Shown here: one piece after another, positions 3,877 to 37,239 of the stretch
How positions within the stretch are numbered: the stretch's first letter is position 1
Layout: every line of letters starts with the position of its first letter
Source of the DNA: a virus
Lineage: Duplodnaviria > Caudoviricetes
Direction: 5' to 3' (one strand)
Virus record (IMG/VR): IMGVR_UViG_3300048886_000261
Coordinates: 1 to 39,536 of that record
Length of the DNA stretch: 39,536 nt
Position numbers and translations under genes: made by a program
Notes under the pieces: model-generated
Told to the model about the DNA's origin: nothing
Databases searched by the model: none
What the model saw: the letters and a program-made list of their open reading frames with translations, nothing else

Positions 3877-4658
3877 CTGACTTAATTGTAAAAAAATTTA
3901 ATGGCTTTGAGAATCATCCGTCATATGGTGGTAAATCTCTTGCGACTAACTTAGCTAACGCCCAGAAAAGTATCGATAAGGTACGATACACAGATAGAAT
4001 ATGGGATAGGTCAAATTCGCAATGGATGGTAAAATTCCTGACTTGCTCGAATGCAGATGGATGGTTAAGGATGAGGCAGATTAGTGCGGAGATTTATTCT
4101 AAAAGAGCCGCACTTACTGAAGCACGTTTTAATTATATGAAAAGGCTGACAAAGGCAAGTATCAAGCGTGATGAAATGTTAGAAGAGGAGAGCGAGAATA
4201 AAAAATTACTATTAGAAATTGAAGCCGCTCAATTAGAACACGAAGCCTCTGAAACTTTATCATCAATGGAGGGGGCTTTGAAAGAGGTAGAAACGCTCGG
4301 CAAAATGCACGATGAATTGAAAGAACGGCTTGGTGAAATTACCGAAGAGGAGTTTGAAAAACAGCAAACAAAAGCCCATATTAAACGTGCAGTAATGCAA
4401 GCGGTTAGGGAGGTAAAAGAATGTGGCAAAATTAGATGTGGGAACGCTGAGTATTTAGAGCAAAGTGGATTATCCACATCAGCGATTCACGGAGAAATTA
4501 CTGCTTTTATAGAGAGGGAAACTAAGTCTGGAATTATTGATACCAGTATGCTTCATCAATTCTTAGATGCTATAGCAAATAAGTATGAAGGAGCCATTGT
4601 TCAACAAGCTGAATGGTTGGGGTTTGACCCTAAAGCAAGTATACACTTTACTAAGTAA
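3873..4658 (+). CDS. Coiled-coil hypothetical protein coupled to tail fibre
   Basis: 261-aa ORF, TTG start overlapping the tail fibre TGA; E/K-rich heptads. Confidence 0.8.
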   Translation: MTDLIVKKFNGFENHPSYGGKSLATNLANAQKSIDKVRYTDRIWDRSNSQWMVKFLTCSNADGWLRMRQISAEIYSKRAALTEARFNYMKRLTKASIKRDEMLEEESENKKLLLEIEAAQLEHEASETLSSMEGALKEVETLGKMHDELKERLGEITEEEFEKQQTKAHIKRAVMQAVREVKECGKIRCGNAEYLEQSGLSTSAIHGEITAFIERETKSGIIDTSMLHQFLDAIANKYEGAIVQQAEWLGFDPKASIHFTK

Positions 4659-4659
4659 T

Positions 4660-5253
4660 ATGTACAAAGTTGTAAGAGGTATTATATCGAAAGATTTGGC
4701 AAAGTTTTGTTACGATTATTTTTTGCTTAAGAGAAAAGTAGTTAGCTTTTTTCGTGAAATAAACTACCTTTCGCCACTTGATGAAAACTGGGGTGTTTGG
4801 AGTGATGGGCAAATCCCAGACACTTACAGCGTATACGGTGATTTTGTAATGGAAACTTTATTAGAAAAATTACATCCATGTATGGAAACAGAAACAGAAT
4901 TAAAATTATACCCAACTTATAGTTATGCCAGAATATATAAAAACGGAGATGTTCTTCACAGACACAAAGATAGAGCCAGTTGTAAAGTATCTACAACTGT
5001 AAATTTAGGTGGTGATGCTTGGCCTATATTTTTAGAGCCTTCTGGAGAATGTGGTAAAACAGGAATAAGCGTGTTGTTAGAAGCTGGTGATATGCTGATA
5101 TACGATGGATGTAAACTAGAGCATTGGCGAGAACCATTTGAAGGTGAAAATTGTGGGCAAGTGTTTTTGCATTATAACGATACGCCAGACAATAAATACG
5201 ACACAAGACCCTTTTTAGGGCTACCTCCGTATTTTAAGGGGATGAATGGGTGA
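4660..5253 (+). CDS. 2OG-Fe(II) oxygenase (phage type)
   Basis: PTYSYARIY, HKDR (HxD), EHWREPF, QVFLHY; ATG at 4660 immediately after the previous stop. Confidence 0.88.
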   Translation: MYKVVRGIISKDLAKFCYDYFLLKRKVVSFFREINYLSPLDENWGVWSDGQIPDTYSVYGDFVMETLLEKLHPCMETETELKLYPTYSYARIYKNGDVLHRHKDRASCKVSTTVNLGGDAWPIFLEPSGECGKTGISVLLEAGDMLIYDGCKLEHWREPFEGENCGQVFLHYNDTPDNKYDTRPFLGLPPYFKGMNG

Positions 5254-5838
5254 ATGTTTTATATATTTCCCAATGTAATTAGTCCTGATATTTGTGATGA
5301 AATTATTAAAGAGGGTAAACAACATATTTTAGAAAAGGCTGAAGTTTTTAACCGAGATAAAAAGTCATCAAGAGATGACCCTAATATTAGGAAAAGTTCA
5401 GTTTGTTTTATTGAGGGTAAAGAACACAAAATAAACCAACTTGCTTGGAATTTTATAAGACAAGCAAATAAAGAGTATTTTAAATATGATCTTGATTACT
5501 TTCAAGCCGTGCAATTTGCAGAATACAGTAAGGGGGGATTTTTCGATTGGCATCAAGATGATGTAGCTATGCGTGACGTTAGTGAAGTTAGGAAATTATC
5601 TTTCGGAGTCAATCTTTCTGACCCTGATACTTATGAGGGGGGAGAGTTGGAATTTTATAATGGCGGTAGACCTCTTGACGATATGGGAGAGATTAAAGGA
5701 GAGCAAGTAGTCAAAGACATTCAATCGCAGGGGACTGTTGTGGTTTTCGATAGCAGAGATTGGCACAGAGTTAAGCCAGTTACAAAAGGTTTGAGATACT
5801 CTATGGTATGTTGGACAGTTGGGAAAAATTTTATATAG
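5254..5838 (+). CDS. 2OG-Fe(II) oxygenase, prolyl 4-hydroxylase-like
   Basis: WHQD (HxD), RKLS, YEGGELEF, HRVKPVTKGLRYSMVCW (distal His and 2OG-binding Arg). Confidence 0.92.
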   Translation: MFYIFPNVISPDICDEIIKEGKQHILEKAEVFNRDKKSSRDDPNIRKSSVCFIEGKEHKINQLAWNFIRQANKEYFKYDLDYFQAVQFAEYSKGGFFDWHQDDVAMRDVSEVRKLSFGVNLSDPDTYEGGELEFYNGGRPLDDMGEIKGEQVVKDIQSQGTVVVFDSRDWHRVKPVTKGLRYSMVCWTVGKNFI

Positions 5839-6159: not shown

Positions 6160-6248
6160 AAATTTTCATCTGGATTTTAACTGGGGCAACGGTTGTAGGT
6201 GTTGGTTTGTTTGTGGCTTATGTGATAGCAATGGCGAGGATACATTAA
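6156..6248 (+). CDS. 30-aa membrane micro-protein
   Basis: MKIFIWILTGATVVGVGLFVAYVIAMARIH; ATGA overlap with upstream stop; below the ORF-track cutoff. Confidence 0.6.
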   Translation: MKIFIWILTGATVVGVGLFVAYVIAMARIH

Positions 6249-6362
6249 ATGGAAGTATTAGATATATGGAATGGATTGGGATATATAGAAGGGTTTTTGT
6301 TTTCGCTATGGATAGGGCTTATGTATTATGCTAAGTGTTGGGTGGACAATCGGTTCAAATGA
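6249..6362 (+). CDS. 37-aa membrane micro-protein
   Basis: MEVLDIWNGLGYIEGFLFSLWIGLMYYAKCWVDNRFK; starts directly after the previous TAA. Confidence 0.6.
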   Translation: MEVLDIWNGLGYIEGFLFSLWIGLMYYAKCWVDNRFK

Positions 6363-17200: not shown

Positions 17201-20143
17201 GCATTAGGTCGTAAATCAGAAAGTTATGATGAAGCAAGGACTAGACTAAATCTGCCACCAGACACTGAAGAGGTAGCTCCTAAAGAAAAAGAAATATCCC
17301 CTGAAGCTGAGAAGATATTTGAGAGACTGGAAGAAGAACGACTGACTGACTATGAGACGTTCAGCCAGAGTTCAATAACAGTAGAAGAATACAAAGATGG
17401 CAGGTTCTCTGTCAGTGGTCTAGAACCAAAGTTTCTTATAAAGAATTTCTCCAAGGAGCAGGCAGATAATTTTGTTGCAAAGTTGAGAGATAATCCCGGA
17501 GAAACATTGAGAGTAATACAAGGATACGCACGCCTAGCTAAAGTACCTGTTGAGAATAAGGAAACTGTAACAGCGGTTGAGAAGAAGGTTGAGAATATAA
17601 AGAAGGAGGACAAGGCAGAGGACTTAAAGACTGCAAAGGAATTATCAGAGGCGTTACGTGCCAATGCTGTTATAGCATCTAATGCTAAGAGTATAGGTAA
17701 AGCAAAAACATCTCTTAAGGAAGTACAAAGGTTATCTAAGAAGTTAGGCAATTCAAGCTTACCTACTGAATTCTTACTTGAGAAAGCTAGGGAGCAGTTA
17801 AAGGAGGTAGAACAAGTCCCATTTGCACAAAGAGATTTCAAGAAGGTTGCGTTCTACAAATCTCACATCCAAGCATTAGAAGATATTCTGAATAATGTTC
17901 TCAGGTACAAGGATGCAAAAGCTGTAAAACAAGTTGCCACCATATTGAAGCGTCAACTAAAGGACATGAAGGAAACAGGCTATGAAGTTGAACGAGGCGT
18001 AGATCTATCTGGTAACGTAGGTAACCTTGTAAGAATACTTGAGTTTACGAAGATGCATGTAAAGGCTCCTGTCACAAAAGAAAATCCAGAAGGTGTCGTT
18101 ACGTTATCTGGAGCAGAACTGTTGCGTAGTCTTAACGTAGTTTCATCAATGAAGAAAACAACAATACCCAAGGGAACACAAGTAACTAAGCTTGATACTG
18201 GAGAAATACGCAGACGAGTAAAGACATTTGACAACGCAAACAGTGCATTGCATAGACGGTGGAATGAAGCTATAGAAAAAAATGATCAGTATGTCAAGAG
18301 TGGTAAGGATAAAGATGGCAAACCATTTACAGATGAAGATGGCATCAAGGCGATACAGGACATAGACAGAACTTCTATTGCGGAACAGAATCAATTAATA
18401 GAGGATTACATTAATGATGGTAAAGAGATGGGATTTAATGCGTTAGAGTTTTTCCCTACCGTTGAAGAACAATCAAGCGAAAATAAACTTGAGAAAGCTC
18501 GTAGGAGAATAGCTACTGCATTAGATAAGTTTACAACAGCAGCAGGTGGTGTCGAAACAGTGTTCGATAAGAAACAGAGATCTAAAAAAGCACGCCAAGA
18601 GGCTGTTGAGAAAGAAGTGTTATATCAGATGCCTGAACGTTTATTGTCTGGTGAAGTTATCATACATCAGTACCATCCAACCAAGGCAGGAGAAACAATA
18701 GTTAGACCCGGTTGGCTTGGCCCACTAAAGAAGAAAGTTCTGCCTGCACAAAAGGGAATTAAAAAACCAAAAGGTGTGCCTGTTACATCTTATACTGCTA
18801 CTCGTAAATCATTACCACAACCTCCATTGCTTGATGAAGCATTCTGGAGATCCTACATGGGCAGTGCTTTTGATAATAAAATGTATGAGTCGTATCGTAA
18901 GGGGAAAGTATCTAAAGCCACATTGAGTTTATGGGAGAACGCTAGGATTGATGGTCGTGTTCTTGAGTTATCTCCAGACATAACAGTTGTTACTTCAAGT
19001 GACCTTGAAACAACTAAGGCAATGAATGCTGCATCAGAACGTATAAAAAAAATACAAGAAACGGATGTTAATAAGTATGATTTGATGGAACGTACTGGTA
19101 AAGAGGGGCAGGCAGCAAGACAGGAATACTATGGGATGGAAGCACAAAGACAAGCTGACACAGGTGAGATCCCTATCAATCCTTCTACTGGCAGACCATA
19201 TAATTCTGTAGAAGAACAAGAGTGGGTGGAAAAAAGCAAGCCAACTGTAACAAGAGTTAAACAGCCTAAGAAAAAGAAAGTTGCTAAGGTAAGGTTAAAA
19301 CTGCGTGATGCAGCATTGTTATTTTCTAGGCGTAAGGTTAAAGATGGCGAAGAAGGTTCCTCCAATGCAAACAATACATACAACACTGGAAGGAATAATG
19401 TTGCCTACCATCACGAGAAAGATGGCAAGGATGACATTATCAGGATGGTATTCAAGGATGGATCTGATCATGGAAGACCGATTGCTTACCTGCATATAGA
19501 GAAAGGTGTACTCACAAAGACAACCAAGGTAGCTAGTGCCTTAAAAGATCTTGAGATATCAAACGATGCATTAAACACAAACATTGGTATTGTCATGGGC
19601 ATTGTTATCGAACAAAGATCACGTAATGCAGGGAAGAACTTGTTTGATGAAGTCACACAGCTTGATGGATTCATACCAAAACAAAAGGCTGAGGTTGATA
19701 GATTTCGTACCATGTTAATCGAAGGAGAAATATCAAAAGCTATCGTTGAGAAGACTATGGAAGATAGACCTATGTTCCAAGAGATGAAAAGAAAAATAGA
19801 TGAATTGAAGGAGCATGAAAAACTTACAGGTATGCATTATGCTAATCTTCCTGCTGACAGAATAGAAGCTGCCCATCAAACTGTATTACAATCACAAAAA
19901 GAACACAGTGATAAGGTAGTAGAGAAGGCTATGGAAGGTGTTTATGAAATTGTTGGAGCTAAGTCAACAGAGGAAACAAAATTAGCACCTAAGAAGAAAG
20001 CACTGTCAGAAACAACAGAGGTGCAAAGCAAAGGAAAACAAATTCTTGGTACTGATAAGTCTGGTGCAGAGCAACAGGCAAACATGGAAACTGAGTCTGG
20101 AAAAGAGAGTGGTTTAACAGATGAAACATTGAGGTGTGACTAG
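14252..20143 (+). CDS. Large internal virion / polyvalent ejection protein with ADP-ribosyltransferase-like domain
   Basis: 1963 aa; Gly/Ala-rich membrane-active region with EGTQEFVQE; WRG...GKGFYL...AEWY...GYDGV...E-x-LVIFD domain. Confidence 0.75.
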   Translation: MTTQTDPFRFTEDDLLRFDRLNINANSLLEQGYDPEIIYQYSDEIEEESQPTTYEAPSLTPSYEAPSPPIYEAPQIETQVQQEAPVMGDVTPDTKLSDLGSLFMGSFNKVLSYPGFIVEKIGEQSGNSNITELGKMLKSGADENARSYFSSLSDQMKRDLEMDFFTYADPESIIPTGTAKGFFNLNKWLGTVAQGAGSTAIPLGTGAVATNVLGRTLLKGMPGLAGALGFGGAGATIEGVGSARDVHDTILETDLETVYNSPMFDAFSQKIKPNYPDAQPEQIAMYTRQMIANHASVDAGKVSGAIIGATSVPFGTLLGRLGIGGAGAARQGFGKAFFKGLTYEGTQEFVQEFSQQIVSNYGVYVSGVPISPTKGAFESGFGGFAAGGPIGSTTAGIASVLQKEQPDVTPPDDGATPEERLTAFAQKVKQEEEAKGQQTLVTPATVAPAIPVLQPDVPVRQDVTDILQEGGSELTTGSRRTGGRVSPTEELKWIAQEADKISRLTREEITEEDIAELNMLRNSLGLPTFTLDQIKATLDSTEIATTPPSDALPTTVGAVTPEPDDETNRYFPGLDLETGEDVTDEVADEVNDGGYQYEYDNLDGIFWRGEGIGGTGVGGGMLGKGFYLGQNKEYAEWYQKQHGKSGELNRYKVKPGLKILSYLSSEVRSINNAFEEKYNVSMVPPPVNDPRYVDFLTKEVKALGYDGVFSSHPREGLVIFDKKNVERVVASTGKAIESVEKVHPEGWDRYEELISKDFYKKTRDLKTKRIVANIEEEIENDPELSRIRKYISVEKEPSVRKDLKEILDIHTRMLRANIQLKPVTAKELKDYINGNIEATPELVERIRETNLNDVDAKDFTKKELGAILDKMHDDTKVFDKAEETDTTPPIDLGRSVSSEGVVRIHDSRAYGMPDHYMPYTKEEKEAKGFDKSDENWGTKGALKEEYPFWNHPENKEKNIEKLFDKFVEADGKDRYAVKAEIDKALGRKSESYDEARTRLNLPPDTEEVAPKEKEISPEAEKIFERLEEERLTDYETFSQSSITVEEYKDGRFSVSGLEPKFLIKNFSKEQADNFVAKLRDNPGETLRVIQGYARLAKVPVENKETVTAVEKKVENIKKEDKAEDLKTAKELSEALRANAVIASNAKSIGKAKTSLKEVQRLSKKLGNSSLPTEFLLEKAREQLKEVEQVPFAQRDFKKVAFYKSHIQALEDILNNVLRYKDAKAVKQVATILKRQLKDMKETGYEVERGVDLSGNVGNLVRILEFTKMHVKAPVTKENPEGVVTLSGAELLRSLNVVSSMKKTTIPKGTQVTKLDTGEIRRRVKTFDNANSALHRRWNEAIEKNDQYVKSGKDKDGKPFTDEDGIKAIQDIDRTSIAEQNQLIEDYINDGKEMGFNALEFFPTVEEQSSENKLEKARRRIATALDKFTTAAGGVETVFDKKQRSKKARQEAVEKEVLYQMPERLLSGEVIIHQYHPTKAGETIVRPGWLGPLKKKVLPAQKGIKKPKGVPVTSYTATRKSLPQPPLLDEAFWRSYMGSAFDNKMYESYRKGKVSKATLSLWENARIDGRVLELSPDITVVTSSDLETTKAMNAASERIKKIQETDVNKYDLMERTGKEGQAARQEYYGMEAQRQADTGEIPINPSTGRPYNSVEEQEWVEKSKPTVTRVKQPKKKKVAKVRLKLRDAALLFSRRKVKDGEEGSSNANNTYNTGRNNVAYHHEKDGKDDIIRMVFKDGSDHGRPIAYLHIEKGVLTKTTKVASALKDLEISNDALNTNIGIVMGIVIEQRSRNAGKNLFDEVTQLDGFIPKQKAEVDRFRTMLIEGEISKAIVEKTMEDRPMFQEMKRKIDELKEHEKLTGMHYANLPADRIEAAHQTVLQSQKEHSDKVVEKAMEGVYEIVGAKSTEETKLAPKKKALSETTEVQSKGKQILGTDKSGAEQQANMETESGKESGLTDETLRCD

Positions 20144-23100
20144 TGGCTAAATGTCTTAAAGAAAAACTTTCAGATCCAAAGGCTAAGGACTTTCAATCAG
20201 TTCTTGATGCTAATACAGAAGCTAACGAAAGAGAGCAGGAGTTCACATCTTCTAATATATTTCGTATGTTCTACAAGCAGATCTTTGATGACAAGGCTAC
20301 TGTTCGCAGGGCATTCAAGTCTGTAGGTAAAAAGATTGAAGATCTTGCACCAAGAGTATTAAGGAAGCTTGACCTGACAGCAGGTGGATCTGCCAACGGT
20401 CTTGTTGTCTTCCAAGGGAAAGCTAATGATACATTATCTGATCTAAAGAAGGGAGAGTATGAACTCGTTGGTAATATTTTATTAGCTGAACGCATCAAGA
20501 CACTTGATACACACAAGGTTGAGGTAGCCCAGAGACAAGTTGACAACAACGGTATTGGCGTTGTTTATGACATGCGTGAAGATAAAGATGTAGCTGCACT
20601 TGGAGTCATACTTGGTAAGGGTATTGCTGAATCAATACAAATCCAGACACATAGAAAGCTAACGGACAGTGGAGCTGTTAACAATAAGTATCTTAAACAC
20701 TTCATTGCTCTCAGCCTGAAGAGAAACAAGAAGACTGATACACTTGATCCTGTCCATCACTATATAAAGACAAAGCCAGGTGCTGAGAAGTATGCCAGAG
20801 AGCAAGTTGATAAGGTGCTTGGTGAATCAAAGATATCGCATCCCGGTGGTATGACACGTGAATATGCACAGGCATGGCTTGATGACTTGAAGAAAGCAGA
20901 ACCTAAAATATTTGCTAGTGCCATGAAGCGTGTTAAAAAGATACATAATGTTTTTGATGAGCAATTAGATGTAGCTCTTGATGCAGGAATAATTTCACAG
21001 AGTGATTATGATCACATGAAGAATGTGGGTGATTACCATCCACGTAGATATCTTAAGTTTCTAGATCCAGATCAGACATTCAATTCATTTGAGAGTATAA
21101 GCAAGGGTAGCACACAGGCATTGCTTTCTGATCCTGCCTTATTAATGCATGATTACATAGTAAGGTTACATGACAGGATAGCAAGGAATGATGCTGCTCA
21201 AGAATTACATTCTATTATCACAAAGAATCCAGACAACAAATACCTGAATAAGATAGTCAAGTTGGTGGGTGACGGTGGCATCGAAGGTGGATGGAATGCT
21301 ATACCTGTATATGTAGACGGAGAGAAGTTAGCATTGCAGATGCCGAAAGAATTAGCAGAGGAATGGAACGGAAGAGATCCTGCTATATCTACTGCTACAG
21401 GTAGAATGATCGGATGGTTATCATTTGCTCCTGCATTGAGAGCTGCTGCTACTGGTCTTAATCCAGATTTTGCCGTGACCAACTTCCCTCGTGACATTTT
21501 CTTTTCATGGTTCAGGACAGATGAATACAACAGGGCTTCTCCTGTAGCATTGTTCCAGATAGCAAGGCAACTATGGAGAGTCAAGGGAGATATATGGACT
21601 ACTAATGACGTACCAAAAGGCAAGGTCAAGGATTACTTCTCTGAAAAGGGTGGGATGGAATTCATGACAGCACAAGGTATGGTATTGGAGAAACATACTA
21701 AGGGTGGTGCAAGTTTCAAGATCACTCATCCTAAGTTAAGAGCCTTAGAAAATGTGTTAAGTTTCATGGGACAAAAGACTGAGCTATGGACACGTGTCGC
21801 ACTCAGAGAGCAAGCGTTAGAAAACAGGATGAAGATTATCAATGCAAAGAAATTAAAGGGTAAGGATCTAGCAGATGCAATAGCTGATGCGAGAGAAGAA
21901 TCCACTTGGATAGCCAGAAATTATTTAGACTTTGCCCAAGGTGGACAAACAACCAAGGTAATAGATAAGTTTGTTCCTTATTTTAATGCAGGTATGGTGG
22001 CAACCAAAGGTATGATAGAAACCATGCAAACAAATCCTGCGTTAGCAACATATAAAATGTCACAGTTTGGTATTTTGTTTACGGCTCTTACGTTGTCTCA
22101 CTTATTAAGACATCCAGAGAAGTGGGATGTCACACCTGAGAATGATAGACACGGTAAGTGGTTATACTATCCTGACCTTCCACCTGTTATAGATAAAAAG
22201 GGTAACAAAAGATATCCATACTTGTCTATACAAATGGATCAAGGACAGCAAGCGTTCTCCAATTTATTTACTGGAATAATTTTACATACACTCCAGTCAT
22301 TCAGTGAAGCTACTGGTTATGATTATGGATTGGAAGATAGACAGCTAAGTAGAATATTAAACACAAGACTTGAACCTTTCTTTGAGTCTGCACAAAAGTT
22401 AATTCCATTCTCTGCCAAGATGCCACCATCAGCACAAGCATTGATAGGTAGTTCAGCAAACTTTCATCCATACTTTAAAGAACCATTGTGGAGAGGACGT
22501 GATGTTAATCCAGAAGATGAATTTGAACCAGATACACATGGTTTGTTTATAGCAATGGCTAATACATTAAACTTCCTAACTCCGTTTGGGGAACCTTGGT
22601 CACCTATAAGATTAAGATTTATGTTCTCACAAGTTATCACACCTGCCAACTCAGTGGTTAAGATGGTTGATTCAACAACAACAGATGTGTTCGATTACTT
22701 CACTGCTGAAGAACAAAAAGAGTTATCAGACCTACAATGGAAATCAATATTATCCGCATCTCCATTAGCTAATCGTGCCTTTAAGTTAACTAAACACTAT
22801 GATGTAGAAGCCTTAGAGGAAAACTACAATATAGAAAGAGAAGAGAATAGCAAACAACAAAAGGTTCGTATAGATGTCGAGACTGGTCTATCAGAATTTC
22901 ATGAACTGGAACAAGGTAATAACAAGGAGTTCACAGAAAACGAGAGAAAGAAATTAGCTGAGATTGGTAGTAGAATAAGAGGAAGCAATCTTACGGTGGA
23001 AGAGAAAGAAGCATTCACAAGGCAGGCTAAATTAGCTATGGCTTTCAAGAGACAGTTTGGTAAAGGTTATCCGAACCAATCTTTCTGGCGTGATGTAGCT

Positions 23101-23274
23101 GGTGCAAAGGAACCACACACAAAAGCTAGAATGATATACACTGCACTTACACGTAAAGATCCAGAGACACGTAAAGAATGGTTGGATGTATTTAATAGGC
23201 TTAAGTACATAAGCACAAGAGATGTTAAAAGATATTTAGCTAAGATGATTAGAGATAATCCATTTGAAGAATGA
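20143..23274 (+). CDS. Large internal virion protein with LPD38-like region
   Basis: 1043 aa; TGLNPDFAVTNFPRD, LDFAQGG, VPYFNAG motifs typical of polyvalent-protein C-termini; GAGGTG RBS, GTG start. Confidence 0.75.
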   Translation: MAKCLKEKLSDPKAKDFQSVLDANTEANEREQEFTSSNIFRMFYKQIFDDKATVRRAFKSVGKKIEDLAPRVLRKLDLTAGGSANGLVVFQGKANDTLSDLKKGEYELVGNILLAERIKTLDTHKVEVAQRQVDNNGIGVVYDMREDKDVAALGVILGKGIAESIQIQTHRKLTDSGAVNNKYLKHFIALSLKRNKKTDTLDPVHHYIKTKPGAEKYAREQVDKVLGESKISHPGGMTREYAQAWLDDLKKAEPKIFASAMKRVKKIHNVFDEQLDVALDAGIISQSDYDHMKNVGDYHPRRYLKFLDPDQTFNSFESISKGSTQALLSDPALLMHDYIVRLHDRIARNDAAQELHSIITKNPDNKYLNKIVKLVGDGGIEGGWNAIPVYVDGEKLALQMPKELAEEWNGRDPAISTATGRMIGWLSFAPALRAAATGLNPDFAVTNFPRDIFFSWFRTDEYNRASPVALFQIARQLWRVKGDIWTTNDVPKGKVKDYFSEKGGMEFMTAQGMVLEKHTKGGASFKITHPKLRALENVLSFMGQKTELWTRVALREQALENRMKIINAKKLKGKDLADAIADAREESTWIARNYLDFAQGGQTTKVIDKFVPYFNAGMVATKGMIETMQTNPALATYKMSQFGILFTALTLSHLLRHPEKWDVTPENDRHGKWLYYPDLPPVIDKKGNKRYPYLSIQMDQGQQAFSNLFTGIILHTLQSFSEATGYDYGLEDRQLSRILNTRLEPFFESAQKLIPFSAKMPPSAQALIGSSANFHPYFKEPLWRGRDVNPEDEFEPDTHGLFIAMANTLNFLTPFGEPWSPIRLRFMFSQVITPANSVVKMVDSTTTDVFDYFTAEEQKELSDLQWKSILSASPLANRAFKLTKHYDVEALEENYNIEREENSKQQKVRIDVETGLSEFHELEQGNNKEFTENERKKLAEIGSRIRGSNLTVEEKEAFTRQAKLAMAFKRQFGKGYPNQSFWRDVAGAKEPHTKARMIYTALTRKDPETRKEWLDVFNRLKYISTRDVKRYLAKMIRDNPFEE

Positions 23275-24149
23275 AAGGTGTATCAGATTACATAACTAAG
23301 GATGGTGTGAGGGTAGTTAAAGTTCATTACTCAGCAGATCCTGATAAGGATGTATCCACAGCAGAGGGTAAGAAGTGGATGGCTAAAGCTCTTCTTGGTT
23401 ACCCCGGTGGATTAGAGGGAGCCAAGTGGCGAAGGGAAATGGAGATAGACTTCAATGCACAAGGAGGTCAGCTTGTATTTCCACAGATGGATGAACACAA
23501 AGAGAGAATATTAATTCCACCTCTCAAGGAGATCCCAGATGAGTGGAAACTATATGGTGGGTTTGATTATGCAGGCAGAGGGACTACAGCTTTTGTAATC
23601 ATTGCACATGATAGAAAGAATGATGACTACTACTGTATAGAGGAGTATTATAAGAAGACAGCAGGGTATGTAGCCACGTGTGATTATATAAAGAATTGTG
23701 AATACTATCACATGTTAGATTGGATGGTAGCTGATCCATCTATGTGGGCTAAGACACAGGAGCGTGCAGGAGTCACTGACCTTGTCAGCATGGCACAATT
23801 ATTCAGTGAGCAAGGGGTACACTTCATCAAGGGTACAAGAGGTGGAGATACAGAGTTTGCTGAACTGATTAATGAGCAAATGTGGGGGAAGATAAACAAG
23901 AAGGGAGTTCATAGCAATCCACGATATAGAATATTCGCTAACTGCAAGAACCATTGGAGTGAGATGTCACAATGGAGATATTCAGAATGGGCTAATGCTA
24001 CAGGACAACATAAGAATGTTAAAGAAACTATGGTAGATAAGAACAATCATAGTATTGATGCTGCTAAGTATGTATTCAAGATGCTCTCCACTAACTGGAT
24101 GGCTGAGAAGGTAGACAGCTTTGATATAAACAAACATATCGTTAACTAA
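23271..24149 (+). CDS. terL: Terminase large subunit, C-terminal half (linker + RNase H-like nuclease) as a stand-alone gene
   Basis: HYSADPDKD...WRREMEIDF linker, GGFDYAG, ADPS, RIFANC, DKNNHSIDAAKY; no Walker motifs. Confidence 0.88.
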   Translation: MKGVSDYITKDGVRVVKVHYSADPDKDVSTAEGKKWMAKALLGYPGGLEGAKWRREMEIDFNAQGGQLVFPQMDEHKERILIPPLKEIPDEWKLYGGFDYAGRGTTAFVIIAHDRKNDDYYCIEEYYKKTAGYVATCDYIKNCEYYHMLDWMVADPSMWAKTQERAGVTDLVSMAQLFSEQGVHFIKGTRGGDTEFAELINEQMWGKINKKGVHSNPRYRIFANCKNHWSEMSQWRYSEWANATGQHKNVKETMVDKNNHSIDAAKYVFKMLSTNWMAEKVDSFDINKHIVN

Positions 24150-24159
24150 AGGAGACAGT

Positions 24160-24201
24160 ATGTATAATAAGAAAAGAAAACCTAAACCACCACCTTACTA
24201 G
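24160..24201 (+). CDS. 13-aa basic, Pro-rich micro-peptide
   Basis: MYNKKRKPKPPPY with AAAGGAG RBS; its stop overlaps the next RBS. Confidence 0.5.
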   Translation: MYNKKRKPKPPPY

Positions 24202-24211
24202 GAGAGAAGTT

Positions 24212-24421
24212 ATGCCAAAGTACAACACACCTGAAGAGAATCTTGCCGAATACGGTGCTGATTATGATAAGATTAAAGTAATGAAACCAGAGGAAGACTT
24301 GACTGATGTGTCCTCAATAGCAGGACGCAAACGTATCAATGGTTTGGTAGGTAATATCATTGACATGTCTGATTCAACACCTAACAGAGTCCATTGTGGC
24401 GATAGCGGCAACAAGCACTAA
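24212..24421 (+). CDS. Hypothetical protein
   Basis: 69-aa ORF with AGGAG RBS. Confidence 0.7.
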   Translation: MPKYNTPEENLAEYGADYDKIKVMKPEEDLTDVSSIAGRKRINGLVGNIIDMSDSTPNRVHCGDSGNKH

Positions 24422-24449
24422 CATAGATTACACCCAAGGGGGGTTGTCG

Positions 24450-25001
24450 TTGCAGATAAAGAACGCATGGCATCCATGTGACATGGTCACTGGAAGCCTG
24501 TTCTTGGGCAACGATGATAACCCACAGGCGTACTGTGTTGTGTCTGCCAAGCTACCAAGAACATATGATACTGACAGAAATGAATGGATGGCAGATCCAG
24601 AGTATCATATATTTGACGAGATCATTGGGAGACTATCTGATGATTTCATACAAGATGTCAAAGATTTTCTTCATGAAAATAAAGTGGAGAGATTAATCTT
24701 CGTATGTTCTGATGAGGAATTAAGAAACAGAATAAGGAAAGATCTACGCATAAGAGTTATCTTTGAGGATGAGAAGAGAAGAAATAATAATTCAATTATA
24801 CTCAGGGAATGGTTCGCAAGAACCAAGAAGGATGGTGAGGATTCACAACTCAAGATATGGGGGGTATGCTCAGAGGCTATCAAATCAAATTATCCACCTG
24901 CTCGTGACTGCATCGTGAGGTTGCTTGAATATTATGACAAGCGTAAGAAGTCAAAGATCTCAGTAGTCAGACCAAATAAAATGAGAGACGGATACTCGTA
25001 A
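24450..25001 (+). CDS. Hypothetical protein; possible degenerate terminase-nuclease-like (RNase H fold) paralog
   Basis: ORF is open from 24360, likely TTG start at 24450 after AAGGGGGG; motif order parallels TerL-C but the catalytic Asp residues are absent. Confidence 0.55.
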   Translation: MQIKNAWHPCDMVTGSLFLGNDDNPQAYCVVSAKLPRTYDTDRNEWMADPEYHIFDEIIGRLSDDFIQDVKDFLHENKVERLIFVCSDEELRNRIRKDLRIRVIFEDEKRRNNNSIILREWFARTKKDGEDSQLKIWGVCSEAIKSNYPPARDCIVRLLEYYDKRKKSKISVVRPNKMRDGYS

Positions 25002-25009
25002 GGAGGAAC

Positions 25010-25624
25010 ATGCCAAAGATAGGAAAAGGAGAAGACGTAGGGAAGCATTACGAAAAACAGGATAAGTTTATTAATCTGTTATTGTTGCATCCCAACCAAA
25101 GCAAGTATAGATCTGCGTTACTAGCAGGCTATGCTTCAAAGTCATTAGAGAAGCGTGTACCTGCCTTGATGAGAGATAAGAAATTTCTTGCTAGGTTAGA
25201 ATCCAGAAGGAAGGAAGTTGAGGAAGCGGTAAACGTAAACGTTGACAAGGTAGCTCAGGAATATGCACGCATAGCATTCCTAGATCCTGCCAGTTATTAC
25301 AAGTTTACACAAGATGGTGGAATAGAAGTTAACAAATCGTACACTATGGATATGCGTCCTATTGCTGAGATTGAGGAAGCTCGTTCAGGCAAGGGGGCTA
25401 ACGGTAAGAACCTTGTTAAGCTAAAGTTCTACAATAAGATGGATGCATTAAAATCATTGAGAGATATGTTTGGCTATGACAAACCAACTAAACATGCAGT
25501 CGCTGGAGTTATCGGGACTGAACAAGGACTCAGTAAAAAGGGGATTGAGTCGGCTATCATCGGACTCATTGGAGGAGTTACACAAGCTCCTGACTCTGAG
25601 ACATTGGATAGCACACCCGAATAA
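25010..25624 (+). CDS. terS: Terminase small subunit
   Basis: SALLAGYA HTH motif, VAQEYARIAFLD, KLKFYNKMDALKSL; AAGGAGG RBS. Confidence 0.9.
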   Translation: MPKIGKGEDVGKHYEKQDKFINLLLLHPNQSKYRSALLAGYASKSLEKRVPALMRDKKFLARLESRRKEVEEAVNVNVDKVAQEYARIAFLDPASYYKFTQDGGIEVNKSYTMDMRPIAEIEEARSGKGANGKNLVKLKFYNKMDALKSLRDMFGYDKPTKHAVAGVIGTEQGLSKKGIESAIIGLIGGVTQAPDSETLDSTPE

Positions 25625-26198
25625 CTTTATCTTTAGCGGTGTTGTCATGACCAAGGATGAGCATGACAGTGACACGCCAGTTAAAGCGTTCCCTCCTAAA
25701 GATTATCTTAAGGAGATAGTAACTGCTGTCCACGAATCAAGCAGAATATTTATACCCAAGAGTAGACAGATCCGTATGTCTTGGATCATGGTACTGTATG
25801 CTCTATGGTTAGCTTTATTCTTTCCACATCAATCTATATTTATTCAGAGCAAGAAGGAAGAAGATGCAGCATCGCTGGTATATGACAAGAAACCAGAGAA
25901 CTCTCGCATGTCATTTGTATATCATCACCTTCCTACGTGGGTCAAAGAAATGAATCCTGTGGATTGCAGTTATGCTAAGATGAGGTTCGCTAATGGAAGT
26001 ATTGTCTGGGGGATACCAGAAGGGGGACACATCATCCGATCTCATACAGCTAGTCTAGTGATTTCGGATGAGTGTGCCTTCCAACCTGAGTTTGAAAATG
26101 CCTACACGGCAGCAGTTCCTATGGCTAAGAAGATAGTAGGCTTATCTTCTGCAAACGGTGGGACATTCTTTGGGGATATTGTAACGGAGGTCATTTAA
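25476..26198 (+). CDS. terL: Terminase large subunit, N-terminal ATPase half as a stand-alone gene
   Basis: KSRQIRMSW (Walker A region), QSKKEEDA, RFANGS, LVISDECAF (Walker B), LSSANG (coupling motif); start uncertain (25470/25476/25494). Confidence 0.9.
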   Translation: MTNQLNMQSLELSGLNKDSVKRGLSRLSSDSLEELHKLLTLRHWIAHPNNFIFSGVVMTKDEHDSDTPVKAFPPKDYLKEIVTAVHESSRIFIPKSRQIRMSWIMVLYALWLALFFPHQSIFIQSKKEEDAASLVYDKKPENSRMSFVYHHLPTWVKEMNPVDCSYAKMRFANGSIVWGIPEGGHIIRSHTASLVISDECAFQPEFENAYTAAVPMAKKIVGLSSANGGTFFGDIVTEVI

Positions 26199-26608
26199 TA
26201 AATCCATATAAGCTGATCTGATTTGTCTTGATCAATATCAACATGGATGAATCCATCCTTACCTGACACACCTATTCGGGAGAACAAATCATGTTTCATT
26301 ATTAGTTGTACCAACGCATATCTTTCTCTGCTAGTTTTAGCAGAGATATCCGCAGCTAAACCTTTGGCATGACTACTGAGTCCCTTGGATTCAGGGCGTG
26401 ATATCGTTAGGGGGTGATCCTTGCATCTAAAGCCAGAGTTAATTTTTATTGGCAACTTATATAATTTTCTTAATTGCTCAAGCTTCTCTACTAACTTGAA
26501 GCTCACACCCAACTCACCATAAGGAGTACACTTATCACACTTACATGATAATTCTGTTGGCTTGAAATATACAAAATCCCATGACACAACTTCTCTATCC
26601 GTTGTCAT
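26195..26608 (-). CDS. Peptidase M15A family endolysin
   Basis: CKC, NSGFRC, SSHAKGLAADI (H-x6-D), FIHVD. Confidence 0.9.
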   Translation of the reverse strand: MTTDREVVSWDFVYFKPTELSCKCDKCTPYGELGVSFKLVEKLEQLRKLYKLPIKINSGFRCKDHPLTISRPESKGLSSHAKGLAADISAKTSRERYALVQLIMKHDLFSRIGVSGKDGFIHVDIDQDKSDQLIWIY

Positions 26609-26819
26609 CTGACATCTCCTTTAATTGTTTGATTGTTTCTTTAACTCTCTTGTCTCTTAGCTCAAGCTTACGTTCCAGATAAGATATATATAACAACATT
26701 TCTTCCCAACATTTATAAGCTCTGGATTTTTTTGTTGCCGTCTTAATTAATTCTCTGCCTAGATGTTCTATACATTCATCTGGTCTTTCTAGTTTGCGTC
26801 TTAGGTCTGGTGTCTTCAT
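26595..26819 (-). CDS. Hypothetical protein
   Basis: Helical ORF, GGAG RBS before ATG 26819. Confidence 0.65.
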   Translation of the reverse strand: MKTPDLRRKLERPDECIEHLGRELIKTATKKSRAYKCWEEMLLYISYLERKLELRDKRVKETIKQLKEMSDDNG

Positions 26820-27201
26820 TGACTTGCTCCATAAAATCATCTACTGGTATTACTGAGTAATACAATGATGTTCTATCCTCAATAGGAAGGCTTCTATTAT
26901 TTCTTGTATACCAGTAATCATGTGGCACAACTACACGCCAAGGTTCTCTGCTACGTCTGAAAAATAAAACAGGCAATCTTTCTACCGATGCCTGTTCAAC
27001 AGTTTGCTTCCACCAATTTTCTATTTGTAACTTCTCTTGGAACTTTACTTCTATAGCGTACCCATCCAGACCCAACACATCATAGCCACCGTCTTGGGTC
27101 TGCATGAGATTACGCTTATACTCACCCCCCAGCTTCTCAGCTAGTAGCTTGCATATCTCCCTCTCCCCTCGTTGCCCCTTCTGTCTGCTTGCTCGACTCA
27201 T
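26776..27201 (-). CDS. Holliday junction resolvase-like PD-(D/E)XK nuclease
   Basis: SRQKGQRGEREI, GGYDV, AIEVK, LPVLFFRRSREPWRVV. Confidence 0.85.
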   Translation of the reverse strand: MSRASRQKGQRGEREICKLLAEKLGGEYKRNLMQTQDGGYDVLGLDGYAIEVKFQEKLQIENWWKQTVEQASVERLPVLFFRRSREPWRVVVPHDYWYTRNNRSLPIEDRTSLYYSVIPVDDFMEQVNEDTRPKTQTRKTR

Positions 27202-27319
27202 TGACTACCTCTCCTTGACAACATGGTGAGTAATTACCTTTGCATACAGAACATTGTGTATGTCCATGCACGTCAATAGGTACACATTCTTGATGACATA
27301 GACTACATCTTTCTTTCAT
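27137..27319 (-). CDS. Small Cys-rich zinc-finger protein
   Basis: CSLC...HGHTQCSVC...CCQG; GGAGG RBS before ATG 27319. Confidence 0.65.
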   Translation of the reverse strand: MKERCSLCHQECVPIDVHGHTQCSVCKGNYSPCCQGEVVNESSKQTEGATRGEGDMQATS

Positions 27320-27560
27320 TACGTTTCCACCTCCTATATACAGACATACTTGCCCATCGTTTATACAAATGAGATCCGTAAATCCACAGCATCCCTGCGT
27401 CAATTAAAATGATACCGATCTGTCCTGTGTGAATCCACATCCACACCCAAAATATTTGAGTAACAAATGCAAGAGGCACACCCCAACTGTGATGATGGTT
27501 GGTGATAGCCCATATGCTTACCAACGTAATACTAGATAATATTATTTCTATTAGTAACAT
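27303..27560 (-). CDS. Small 3-TM membrane protein (PnuC/SemiSWEET-like half module)
   Basis: Three hydrophobic segments; WG...QIFW...GQIG pattern. Confidence 0.55.
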   Translation of the reverse strand: MLLIEIILSSITLVSIWAITNHHHSWGVPLAFVTQIFWVWMWIHTGQIGIILIDAGMLWIYGSHLYKRWASMSVYRRWKRNERKM

Positions 27561-29449: not shown

Positions 29450-29801
29450 CGAATAACTCCTTTCTGTATTGTTCTCTTAATAATTTTTCTCTTTCTTCCT
29501 GAGCCTTCTGTATCTCTGAGTATGAAAGCTCAACAGTTTTCTCCTTCTGATGAGTGTCACGTAGACATCCAATGGAAGGATAGAACTTCATGTAATAACC
29601 TAATGACTTCTTGCCTTGCAACCATTCTTCCTTACTACTCAGCATGAATTGGAAGTCTGCTATGATCTCATCAAATCCACCTCGTTGCTTGGCTATAGTA
29701 GTAAGGATAGGATAATCCTTTCCACCGTATGGCATCTTGCCACCACCAAAATGATCTTGGTACATGGATGCCATTACTTCTAATGCATCCTTAGCTGTCA
29801 T
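29442..29801 (-). CDS. Hypothetical protein, possible replication initiator / helicase loader
   Basis: Directly upstream of and overlapping dnaB; AGGAGG RBS. Confidence 0.5.
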   Translation of the reverse strand: MTAKDALEVMASMYQDHFGGGKMPYGGKDYPILTTIAKQRGGFDEIIADFQFMLSSKEEWLQGKKSLGYYMKFYPSIGCLRDTHQKEKTVELSYSEIQKAQEEREKLLREQYRKELFDE

Positions 29802-30754
29802 GCTTCCTCCTTTCTTGTTAGTCTTTGTACGTATTTATGCATGACCACACGCTTGCGTGGACTCATCTTGTTATACTGCTCAGTTATCTCAGGCAACTTA
29901 TGATTGGCTAACCTTTGAACCCATTCATAAGGAACATCAGCATCTATCATACGAGTAATAAATGTACGCTTAAACGAATGCACATCCGTATTCATAATAT
30001 CTGGATACTTCTTGGAAGCAGACAGACGTGCAGACTTATACTCAGTACAATTCATTTGACTGATAGGCTTTCCTTTTACTGTAAACACATAAGAAGAATC
30101 AGTCTTATGTCTATATACTTGAGCAAGAGCTATATCATTCAACACAACATAAGCATCTTCCTTCATGTATCTACTAGACTTCATAAATGTTTTTGGAACT
30201 CTGAAATAAGTTATCTTCTTATCACTATACGTATCTGTGTGTAGCCATGACCATCTAAGGTTACACACAATGGACTCACGTTGACCAGTATGAATACTAA
30301 ACGTAACCATGTTTTGAAGTAACGGTGATAAGTTCTTCAACAACTCTGCTTCCCATTCAGGTTCAAGATGTAACCTGATACGACTAGGCTTAAAGTTCCA
30401 CCTAGTAATTTCACTCTCATCTAACAACCTTATATTCTCCCACGATCTTCTTGATAGTAAAGCATACTCCTTAATTGCTTTCTTACCAATAGTATTTATA
30501 AGAGATAACTCCTTGTTAACCGTGTTAGCTGTGACACCATCCTTTGCACGTTTAAGAACATACTTGTTTAATGCATAGATAGGCACATAAAGGTTAAGTT
30601 CTTTAGGTCTGATCAACTCACTCATATATATACCACCAATAAAAGGAATAAGTTTATCTACATACTCATGATCCTTGTTAGCAGTTTTCTTTGTTATCAT
30701 CTTAAGGTGAGCTTTAGATATCTCACCGAAGGTAGCATCTTTTATTTCTTGCAT
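29798..30754 (-). CDS. Tyrosine recombinase / integrase
   Basis: TANTVNKEL, HTGQRES (Arg), HSFKRTF, LANH, TEQY (Tyr). Confidence 0.9.
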   Translation of the reverse strand: MQEIKDATFGEISKAHLKMITKKTANKDHEYVDKLIPFIGGIYMSELIRPKELNLYVPIYALNKYVLKRAKDGVTANTVNKELSLINTIGKKAIKEYALLSRRSWENIRLLDESEITRWNFKPSRIRLHLEPEWEAELLKNLSPLLQNMVTFSIHTGQRESIVCNLRWSWLHTDTYSDKKITYFRVPKTFMKSSRYMKEDAYVVLNDIALAQVYRHKTDSSYVFTVKGKPISQMNCTEYKSARLSASKKYPDIMNTDVHSFKRTFITRMIDADVPYEWVQRLANHKLPEITEQYNKMSPRKRVVMHKYVQRLTRKEEA

Positions 30755-35860: not shown

Positions 35861-36925
35861 CTAACCTCCGAAGTTTAAGTGTTGTTGTTGAAATCTTTTC
35901 ATACTAATTTCTACATACTCAGGGTTCAACTCTATACCTATTGCTTTTCTACTATGCTTCCTTGCTACTGCACCTGTAGTTCCAGATCCCCAGAAAGGAT
36001 CAAGTACAATGTCACCTTCCTTACTGCCAGCCAGTATGCAGAACTCAGGTAACTCAGGTGGAAAGACTGCGAAGTGTGCCTCCTTATATGGCTTAAGATT
36101 AATATTCCATACTGATCTCTTGTTCCTTGTTACATAATTGTTTCTCTTTAATCCTGTTATCCTGTCACGTCCGGGAGTTTTGTTTAGCTTACCCTTGTCC
36201 CTATCCCTGACCTTTTCATCATACGTAGTAGTAGGTTCTTTCAATGCTTCATGATTAAAGTAATACTTCCTACTCTTAGACAATAAGAAGATGTACTCAT
36301 GTGCCTTAGTGCATCTATCCTTGACTGGCTCAGGCATAGCATTAGGTTTGTTCCATATAATATCCTGTCGCAAGTACCAACCATCAGACCTCAATGCGAA
36401 TGCTAACATCCAAGGAATACCTACCATGTCCTTAGCCTTGATGCCATCTATCTTATTGTTCAATGCTACTGACTGTGCATTCCTACGCTCACCAAACTTT
36501 GGATCTTTGGTATCACCCTTATGTCCAGTACCACAATAGGTATCACCAATGTTAACCCATAGTGTGCCATCATCCTTGAGGACTCTCTTTATTCCACGGA
36601 ATACCTTCACCATGTTATCTATGTATTCTTCTGGAGTTTCCTCAAGACCTAACTGCAAGTCTTTCCTTGTAGCACCACAACGTGGACACTCTGTTTTGTA
36701 TATAGCATCACCACTTGGAAAGACTTGACCTGTCTTAGTATGCTCACTCTTCTTAGTGTCCCTGACATGACTACACTCAGGGTCACCACCTTCCCATTCA
36801 CCAGTACCGTAATCCCTCAACCCCCAGTATGGAGGTGAGGTAACACATGTCTGTACCGATGCATCTTCTACATCCAGTATGCCAGTCATGACATCCTTGT
36901 TTATAATACGTATACCTTCTATCAT
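35861..36925 (-). CDS. Orphan DNA methyltransferase, N4-cytosine/N6-adenine family (beta class)
   Basis: TSPPY catalytic motif precedes the DPFWGSGTT SAM-binding motif; LRQDIIWNKPNAMPE, HFAVFP. Confidence 0.93.
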   Translation of the reverse strand: MIEGIRIINKDVMTGILDVEDASVQTCVTSPPYWGLRDYGTGEWEGGDPECSHVRDTKKSEHTKTGQVFPSGDAIYKTECPRCGATRKDLQLGLEETPEEYIDNMVKVFRGIKRVLKDDGTLWVNIGDTYCGTGHKGDTKDPKFGERRNAQSVALNNKIDGIKAKDMVGIPWMLAFALRSDGWYLRQDIIWNKPNAMPEPVKDRCTKAHEYIFLLSKSRKYYFNHEALKEPTTTYDEKVRDRDKGKLNKTPGRDRITGLKRNNYVTRNKRSVWNINLKPYKEAHFAVFPPELPEFCILAGSKEGDIVLDPFWGSGTTGAVARKHSRKAIGIELNPEYVEISMKRFQQQHLNFGG

Positions 36926-37239
36926 ACCTTCTCCTTTTTATAACCTACCCTAGCTCCTCTCTTGACCTTGGTAGCTAAAGAAGACCATGCTTCCATAGAT
37001 CCTTCTCCGTTAGTTTTAGTAAGTCTTGTTTTGTATATATTCTTAGACTTATTACTGTGCCTCTTCCTCGTGCTATCTATAGGACGTTCCATGAGATCAT
37101 CAGGTGTTATTGTTTCTATTAGATTACCTTCACCATCATACCTCTTAACCTCATGAAACATCTTAGCACCATAGTTACTCAACTTAGATTTGTCACGCCT
37201 ATACTTTGATATTCTTTGTTTCGAGTAAGACTGTCCCAT
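36922..37239 (-). CDS. Basic hypothetical protein
   Basis: AGGAG RBS; contains HEVKRYDGEGNLIETI motif. Confidence 0.7.
   Translation of the reverse strand: MGQSYSKQRISKYRRDKSKLSNYGAKMFHEVKRYDGEGNLIETITPDDLMERPIDSTRKRHSNKSKNIYKTRLTKTNGEGSMEAWSSLATKVKRGARVGYKKEKV

Follow-up and report, generated by a model that had tools for sequence, protein, structure and literature searches.

The stretch of DNA examined here (the window, 39,536 nucleotides) is the 39.5-kb linear virus record IMGVR_UViG_3300048886_000261, from an uncultured marine phage of a podovirus clade, with a CheckV completeness of 69%. Its + strand carries tail and large virion-type genes and its - strand carries replication genes. 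The + strand block ends in a series that starts with an open reading frame (ORF) for the C-terminal part of a large terminase subunit (TerL), referred to below as the C-chain, and continues with a 13-codon ORF, a 69-aa ORF, an ORF termed orfB, the small terminase gene terS and an ORF for the N-terminal part of TerL, the N-chain (Table 1). The two TerL ORFs have a combined length of 532 aa and are separated by 1,326 nt, with the C-chain lying upstream. Re-reading of both ORFs on the + strand returned the coordinates, motifs and lengths given in the original prediction, which had been made from the sequence of the window. The locus holds two intact, selected and separately startable genes that together cover one TerL, in an order that no process acting in cis can mend. 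The stop codon of the 1043-aa gene overlaps the C-chain start (ATGA), both outer ends of the split gene overlap neighbouring genes by 4 nt, and the last 149 nt of terS (25476-25624) form a dual-coding overlap with the N-chain gene, which is read in the +1 frame and is conserved in the clade.

Table 1. Coordinates in the window of the split terminase, its neighbours and a repeated stretch
Feature	Position	Strand	Remarks
1043-aa upstream-flank protein	20143..23274	+	probably internal virion protein (by position)
TerL C-chain	23271..24149	+	292 aa; lid end of ATPase domain and RNase H-like nuclease
38-nt stretch	23958..23995	+	inside C-chain gene; identical second copy in G006; at neither break end
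13-codon basic ORF	24160..24201	+	AGGAG site; varies among relatives
69-aa ORF	24212..24421	+	patchy conservation in clade; no family match
orfB	about 24396..25001	+	about 201 aa; predicted terminase-nuclease-like RNase H fold
terS	25010..25624	+	204 aa; Pfam Terminase_2, E 1.8e-12
TerL N-chain	25476..26198	+	240 aa; ATG at 25476, stop at 26198; ASCE ATPase core
Peptidase M15 endolysin, downstream flank	26195..26608	-	convergent; overlaps N-chain stop by 4 nt

For the N-chain, the family matches are to TerL ATPases (PHROG 5989, E 1.4e-10; PHROG 2, E 2.1e-7), and it aligns to residues 140-299 of T4 gp17. Its Walker A (K-SRQI-RM-S), Walker B (SDE) and coupling (SSA) motifs identify it as an ASCE ATPase, and it ends 12 residues past SSANG, or 14 past SSA, at about residue 300-303 of T4 gp17. 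The ATG from which it is read recurs at one fixed place in each of the 26 distinct sequences of the terS overlap and stands directly after an in-frame stop, and the arginine of its P-loop is invariant (79/79 rows).

The C-chain matches TerL nuclease families (PHROG 5653, E 5.6e-10), and its AlphaFold model (predicted local distance difference test, pLDDT, 83.9) resembles the TerL nuclease domains of P22, D6E and SPP1 with Z scores of 19.5, 19.4 and 17.9, respectively (root-mean-square deviation, rmsd, 2.5-2.9, with 169-179 residues aligned). The RNase H-like nuclease occupies residues ~64-280, with D99, D155, H260 and D263, and is preceded by a beta-hairpin and two helices formed by residues 1-63. 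The onset of the nuclease domain, at residue 64-67, corresponds to T4 residue 361 and D6E residue 233; in the D6E protein, the linker spans residues 230-241, and Y213 and R224 are assigned to the lid (PMC5727402). Since the nuclease starts at residue 64-67, and given the D6E positions of lid and linker, residues 1-63 form the last part of the ATPase domain. The break sits inside that domain, at about T4 gp17 residue 300, and it is the C-chain that carries the lid subdomain. The original prediction of a clean separation into an ATPase half and a nuclease half consequently stands as regards the ATPase motifs and the nuclease, but not as regards the first ~63 residues of the C-chain. On the model of the T4 structure, one C-chain strand presumably completes the ATPase sheet.

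Residues H19 and E56 of the C-chain are invariant in all 79 rows. Either half has a start and a stop codon of its own; in the C-chain the start is ATG or GTG, and its distance from the conserved His is exactly 18 codons in all 32 sequences whose 5' end is intact. The sequence flanking either half is unconserved and varies freely across relatives. In relatives with a fused TerL, 37-65 residues separate the coupling motif from the conserved His (11 of 12 loci), so that the break falls in a variable loop. In a profile of 536 positions built from 40 fused relatives, positions 4-219 correspond to the N-part and positions 224-503 to the C-part of G001, a relative described below, with a similar result for the halves in the window.

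Relatives were sought by scanning IMG/VR and GTDB with both halves and with orfB (one scan comprising the best 80 of 142), which gave 159 loci and, once 28 same-contig re-fetches had been dropped, 131. The halves are reversed in 36 of these, split in normal order in 65 and fused in 12, with 18 loci carrying one half only. The claim that the TerL halves are permuted, with terS and three ORFs between them, was borne out, as the order C-part, orfB, terS, N-part recurs in 36 other IMG/VR contigs, all from one clade, whose ATPases are 56-98% identical to that of the window. Contig L168 is an additional reversed case, with C-chain, orfB, one ORF, terS and N-chain in succession. Of the synteny for which the original prediction proposed a search, the reversed order proved to be recurrent and specific to the clade that has orfB, whereas the break site itself is shared by the 65 normal-order contigs. 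Counted from S[ST]A, the break comes after 13-17 residues in 34/34 reversed rows and after 12-25 residues in 62/62 normal-order rows. In 17 of these 62, the N-chain stop and the C-chain start share 1 or 4 nt, as is typical of two separately translated but coupled genes.

FastTree trees were computed for both halves from 121 rows, 79 of them from the loci (near-identical and short ones having been removed) and 42 from a set of 45 longer proteins. In these trees, which are unrooted, carry no bootstrap and contain some long branches, the reversed order forms a single clade with a support of 99 for either half, and the distribution of fused and split states needs 14-15 changes, at least 8-9 of which are forced by strong branches. 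Fused forms are found in L065, L125, L139 and P0070 and normal-order splits in L102-L109, L053-L062 and others, and fused and split forms stand close to each other in the pairs L065/L063 and L125/L119. The tree distances of the two halves correlate with r 0.92 when only the clade is considered and with r 0.64 when all 79 rows are. The order terS-ATPase-nuclease-portal is kept in the normal-order relatives L103, L104, L108 and L109, and in the reversed clade the terminase module is relocated to the late-gene end.

Among the 8 genome loci there was no member of the reversed clade, the best capsid match being 36%, and no cultured phage exceeded 32% identity to either half. The Pfam and NCBIfam terL models did not pick up the family, so that terL-based surveys will miss or misplace its members. 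Some features of the wider family may be recorded here. In the normal-order split clade L043-L052, which has a very long branch, Asn replaces the last catalytic Asp (7/49 normal-order rows); heptose-phosphate adenylyltransferase-like and methyltransferase genes lie between the halves in L140 (1421-2689) and L146 (9018-9945); and L151, L153, L155, L148 and L149 hold normal-order split terminases in Acidobacteriota, Alicyclobacillaceae and Omnitrophota bins, these taxa being possible hosts of the wider family.

The original prediction would have been undone by a misassembly, by a full-length terL elsewhere or by an origin of the halves in unrelated clades. Against misassembly stand the 36 contigs of the same order and sequencing run X1, possibly the record's own source, in which three contigs tile positions 22800-26800 with zero differences at a depth of 31-38, one of them spanning 23966-26149. 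The halves do not come from unrelated clades, as their trees agree and both occur together in fused relatives. The catalytic set (K/S/R of Walker A, DE of Walker B, the coupling motif and D99/D155/H260/D263) is kept in 18/18 reversed tree rows, and the ratios of nonsynonymous to synonymous substitution (dN/dS) relative to the window range from 0.030 to 0.057 in the N-part and from 0.032 to 0.064 in the C-part, in either case over 7 of 8 comparisons, the eighth being saturated.

A full-length terL elsewhere was sought in two further records. A scan of 40 ORFs of G001, a 52.5-kb relative rated 100% complete by CheckV, identified genes for portal, capsid and tail; the fused-family profile matched its two halves only and brought up no full-length terL. 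G006 (L170, 1-17344), a 17.3-kb record of the same phage family that has no overlap with the window, carries genes for a dNMP kinase, an endonuclease VII-like protein, the portal, the major capsid protein, a glycosyltransferase and the tail tube. Four kb of G006 compared with run X1 showed no differences at a depth of 29-37, and G006 is likely to be the missing part of the window genome (56.9 kb together, about 57 kb being expected). No terminase ATPase was found in G006 from the portal to the tail. In G001, and in the window taken with this likely remainder, terS, portal and major capsid genes are present without any other terL.

The large terminase of this phage clade is made from two intact genes in reversed order, whose chains probably assemble in trans, once translated, into one working packaging subunit. 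Assembly in trans, as originally predicted, still appears to be the best explanation when the sequence evidence is considered, with no misassembly, no other terL and congruent halves. The reversed order removes all cis routes to one chain and would therefore offer a clean natural two-chain motor subunit. In the model proposed here, the N-chain would supply the ATP-binding core, and the C-chain would supply the lid and, as one-chain structures suggest, the final strand of the ATPase sheet, with the linker and the nuclease after them, so that neither chain alone would be a complete ATPase. The chains would dock through the first 63 residues of the C-chain, by fragment complementation, at the loop which, in fused forms, is both long and variable. 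Docking would restore core plus lid, and the docked chains would then form the usual ring at the portal. Since the covalent link between lid and nuclease is kept, the usual coupling of ATPase to nuclease would survive. The repeated switches between fused and split states, together with a minimal junction of 37-38 residues, imply that both states share the same architecture. As to its history, the family appears to tolerate a break at this loop and to have passed at least 8 times from the one-gene to the two-gene state or back; a split would have left the genes free to change their order, and they probably did so once, in the ancestor of the marine podovirus clade. In this arrangement orfB would likely act as an accessory of the packaging module.

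It has to be noted that several points weigh against this reading. For the clade it is drawn from sequences and structure models, and congruent trees demonstrate shared descent rather than contact between the chains. The N-chain Walker A is without the usual Gly and adjacent Lys, and the completeness of G001 is a CheckV estimate for a linear record in which no end repeat was found, the window itself standing at 69%. The fused relatives have the same Walker A, with the Gly missing in 18/18 reversed and 12/12 fused rows, and its absence is therefore a family trait; a Walker A with Lys first is classed as lambda type (PMC13595956).

The alternative that survives best, though it is unlikely, is that the chains are made separately and work largely independently, the N-chain as a nuclease-less motor and the C-chain as a separate or transiently bound cutter. 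This would agree with the separability and reordering of the genes and with a C-chain model that folds confidently on its own (pLDDT 83.9). The C-chain, however, retains a lid segment of the ATPase domain with H19 and E56 invariant throughout, and in D6E the lid is contacted by the P-loop Arg (PMC5727402), a residue that is invariant in the N-chain. Independence of the chains is also hard to reconcile with the repeated fused/split switches and the 37-38-residue minimal junction.

A second alternative, which we regard as improbable, leaves the pairing with the C-chain in place and supposes that some or all of the N-chain arises as a TerS-ATPase fusion when ribosomes shift into the +1 frame within the terS overlap. 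The overlap is conserved and always in the +1 frame, and the ribosome-binding-like sequence before the N-chain ATG is weak and distant, yet this ATG is at the same place in all 26 distinct sequences, just past the in-frame stop, both frames are conserved across the overlap, and no conserved slippery run is evident.

Rejoining of the halves, whether by RNA trans-splicing, through a circular RNA or DNA intermediate or by a split intein acting on the proteins, is more improbable still. There is precedent for it in phage terminases, as a terL interrupted by a group I intron is spliced in jumbo gut phages (PMC12880540) and a split intein is known in a phage terminase (PMC2677866). The latter case also bears on the original prediction, which left split inteins out of account: these can rejoin terminase halves in trans, although inteins are excluded here. 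Rfam gave no match at 22500-27500 with E up to 5, and its sole match in 5 related loci was a tRNA; Pfam intein families were absent from 39 N-chains and 41 C-chains. The ends of the halves leave no room for splicing elements, with 14 residues after SSA and 18 before H19 in the window and, across relatives, tails of 13-17 residues and heads of 18, lengths that equal those of the fused junctions. The outer ends in the window overlap neighbouring genes and the flanks are unconserved, and no joint of the N-chain end to the C-chain start was present in any of 4 DNA runs at contig level, where rare forms could escape. Finally, it is scarcely credible that the halves should be relics or products of faulty assembly, with a full-length terL elsewhere: the window is 69% complete and has a 38-nt two-copy repeat inside the C-chain gene, but the order is found in 36 independent contigs, purifying selection is strong, neither G001 nor G006 (the latter in run X1 at the window's depth and without differences) has a full-length match, and the repeat is internal to the gene, with relatives confirming the path through it.

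As regards this repeat, a 93-aa early-region ORF of G006 has at its end 38 nt identical to part of the nuclease gene, and immediately before them stand 19 nt that match window positions 37148-37166 exactly (G006 2762-2817 for the two stretches). The 38-nt repeat has double depth in X1 and the same flanks in X2 and X4, and no long repeats were found at the break ends in the window.

The gene orfB, which the original prediction had not recognised, is present in 36/36 reversed contigs and in 0/77 normal-order or fused ones, with a dN/dS of 0.047-0.077 (6 of 8 comparisons); its GTG start is assumed from an ATG at the same place in L003 and L004. A search of 1.84 billion proteins returned 15 relatives, all of <=217 aa. 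L168 was reached through a distant relative of orfB (34% identity for the cluster representative), and of the distant relatives P0046, P0051 and P0059 a locus was found for P0059 only. The orfB model (pLDDT 79.8) has an RNase H topology, and the seven best matches in a structure search are terminases, with Z scores of 12.0-9.9. The PhiV-1 TerL (8dgc) matched with Z 12.0 and rmsd 3.3 over 153 aligned residues and was also the best Foldseek match (E 3.4e-5), and another orfB relative scored 0.95 to Terminase_3C clusters. With the register of catalytic residues taken from hhalign rather than from superposition, the first catalytic Asp, at the end of strand 1, occurs in 0/24 orfB rows as compared with 90/90 true nucleases, the Asp of the last helix occurs in 10/24, and the strand-3 Glu is kept.

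These models and alignments suggest that orfB is probably an inactive homologue of terminase nucleases, a pseudo-nuclease tied to the packaging module. Several results speak against this assignment: the top Z of 12.0 exceeds that of non-terminase RNase H folds (Z 9.9) by only about 2, hhalign against terminase nucleases gave probabilities of 0.4-3.6% (E 0.012-0.16), which is not significant, sequence searches returned no Pfam, PHROG or PDB match, and D30 and E65 are invariant, so that orfB may not be dead. A search of the ESM Atlas with the window protein gave nothing usable. The idea that the orfB N-terminus is a copy of the ATPase-completing hairpin of the C-chain was rejected, as its score (-2.2) was tied with that of an unrelated turn (-2.3). 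In function, orfB may be an accessory of the motor; alternatively, it may act as a decoy for Avs1-3, by which large terminases are recognised (PMC11564622). A tentative and rather doubtful extension is a four-gene terminase composed of TerS, the ATPase core chain, the lid-plus-nuclease chain and orfB as a working pseudo-nuclease that arose with the reversal, and that would either limit the number of active nucleases meeting the DNA or decoy the terminase-sensing Avs immunity.

Elsewhere in these genomes, an endonuclease VII/HNH gene (L170, 5301-5852) lies just upstream of the portal gene, at the usual site of the terminase genes, and is also found in G003; its product is possibly a packaging co-factor. 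A scan for promoters and terminators gave signals at chance level only. No tRNA gene was found in the window and one was found across 19 loci; in the complete relative L073, a tRNA-Met gene (6179-6252) lies between the nuclease gene and orfB. The window further holds two adjacent 2OG-Fe(II) oxygenase-type genes (4585-5838), a tyrosine integrase-family gene (29798-30754) and a DNA methyltransferase gene (35861-36925), and its tail-fibre-like gene (61-3876) contains repeat units of 60 nt, 30 nt and 330 nt.

TerL is described as one chain, in which ATPase and nuclease are joined by a linker, and the silencing of the nuclease during translocation is regarded there as a question of long standing (PMC13595956). 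The open literature yielded only terL genes split by introns or inteins and none that is reversed or made from two genes without splicing, subscription journals and supplements lying outside the scope of the search, and 10.1101/672428, PMC10580990, PMC6563490, PMC11946847, 10.64898/2026.02.21.707213 and PMC13729910 deal with other splits or with none. One-chain TerLs (T4 gp17, 3ezk/3cpe; D6E, 5oe8; P22, 4dkw; SPP1, 2wc9) share with the present system the ASCE ATPase, the lid, the linker and the RNase H-like nuclease, as well as a terS directly upstream of the ATPase gene. The present system differs from them in its two reversed genes with the break inside the ATPase domain, in the lambda-type Walker A without Gly and in the extra nuclease-like gene of the module. 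In the jumbo-phage intron-split terL (PMC12880540) and the split-intein terminase (PMC2677866) there are likewise several terL ORFs, but these are rejoined by splicing, of which no intron or intein parts were found here. The predicted fold, strand order and strand-3 Glu of orfB are those of Pfam Terminase_3C, Terminase_6C and PhiV-1 TerL (8dgc); it is unlike the terminase RNase H-like families in being a stand-alone gene, in missing the first catalytic Asp and in having no significant sequence match.

The nearest precedent, from outside packaging, is the NrdA of Aeromonas phage Aeh1, an essential enzyme made from two genes, NrdA-a and NrdA-b, and assembled without RNA or protein splicing (PMC3045599). 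As in the present case, two separately translated fragments together make up the whole protein; in Aeh1 NrdA, however, the mobE endonuclease gene lies between the fragments, which need acquired tails, whereas here the order is reversed, acquired tails are absent and no endonuclease family was found among the intervening ORFs.

A close comparison is offered by the fused and normal-order uncultured relatives, which have the same motifs, break site and tree but differ in their normal gene order and in being without orfB. With its reversed order, the break inside the ATPase domain, the fused/split pairs and orfB, the family is a strong test case. The position of the break indicates that the link between core and lid is dispensable while that between lid and nuclease is retained, the separable chains would allow active and dead parts to be mixed, orfB is a candidate for a natural nuclease-dead partner, and the pairs L065/L063 and L125/L119 permit the one-chain and two-chain forms to be compared directly.

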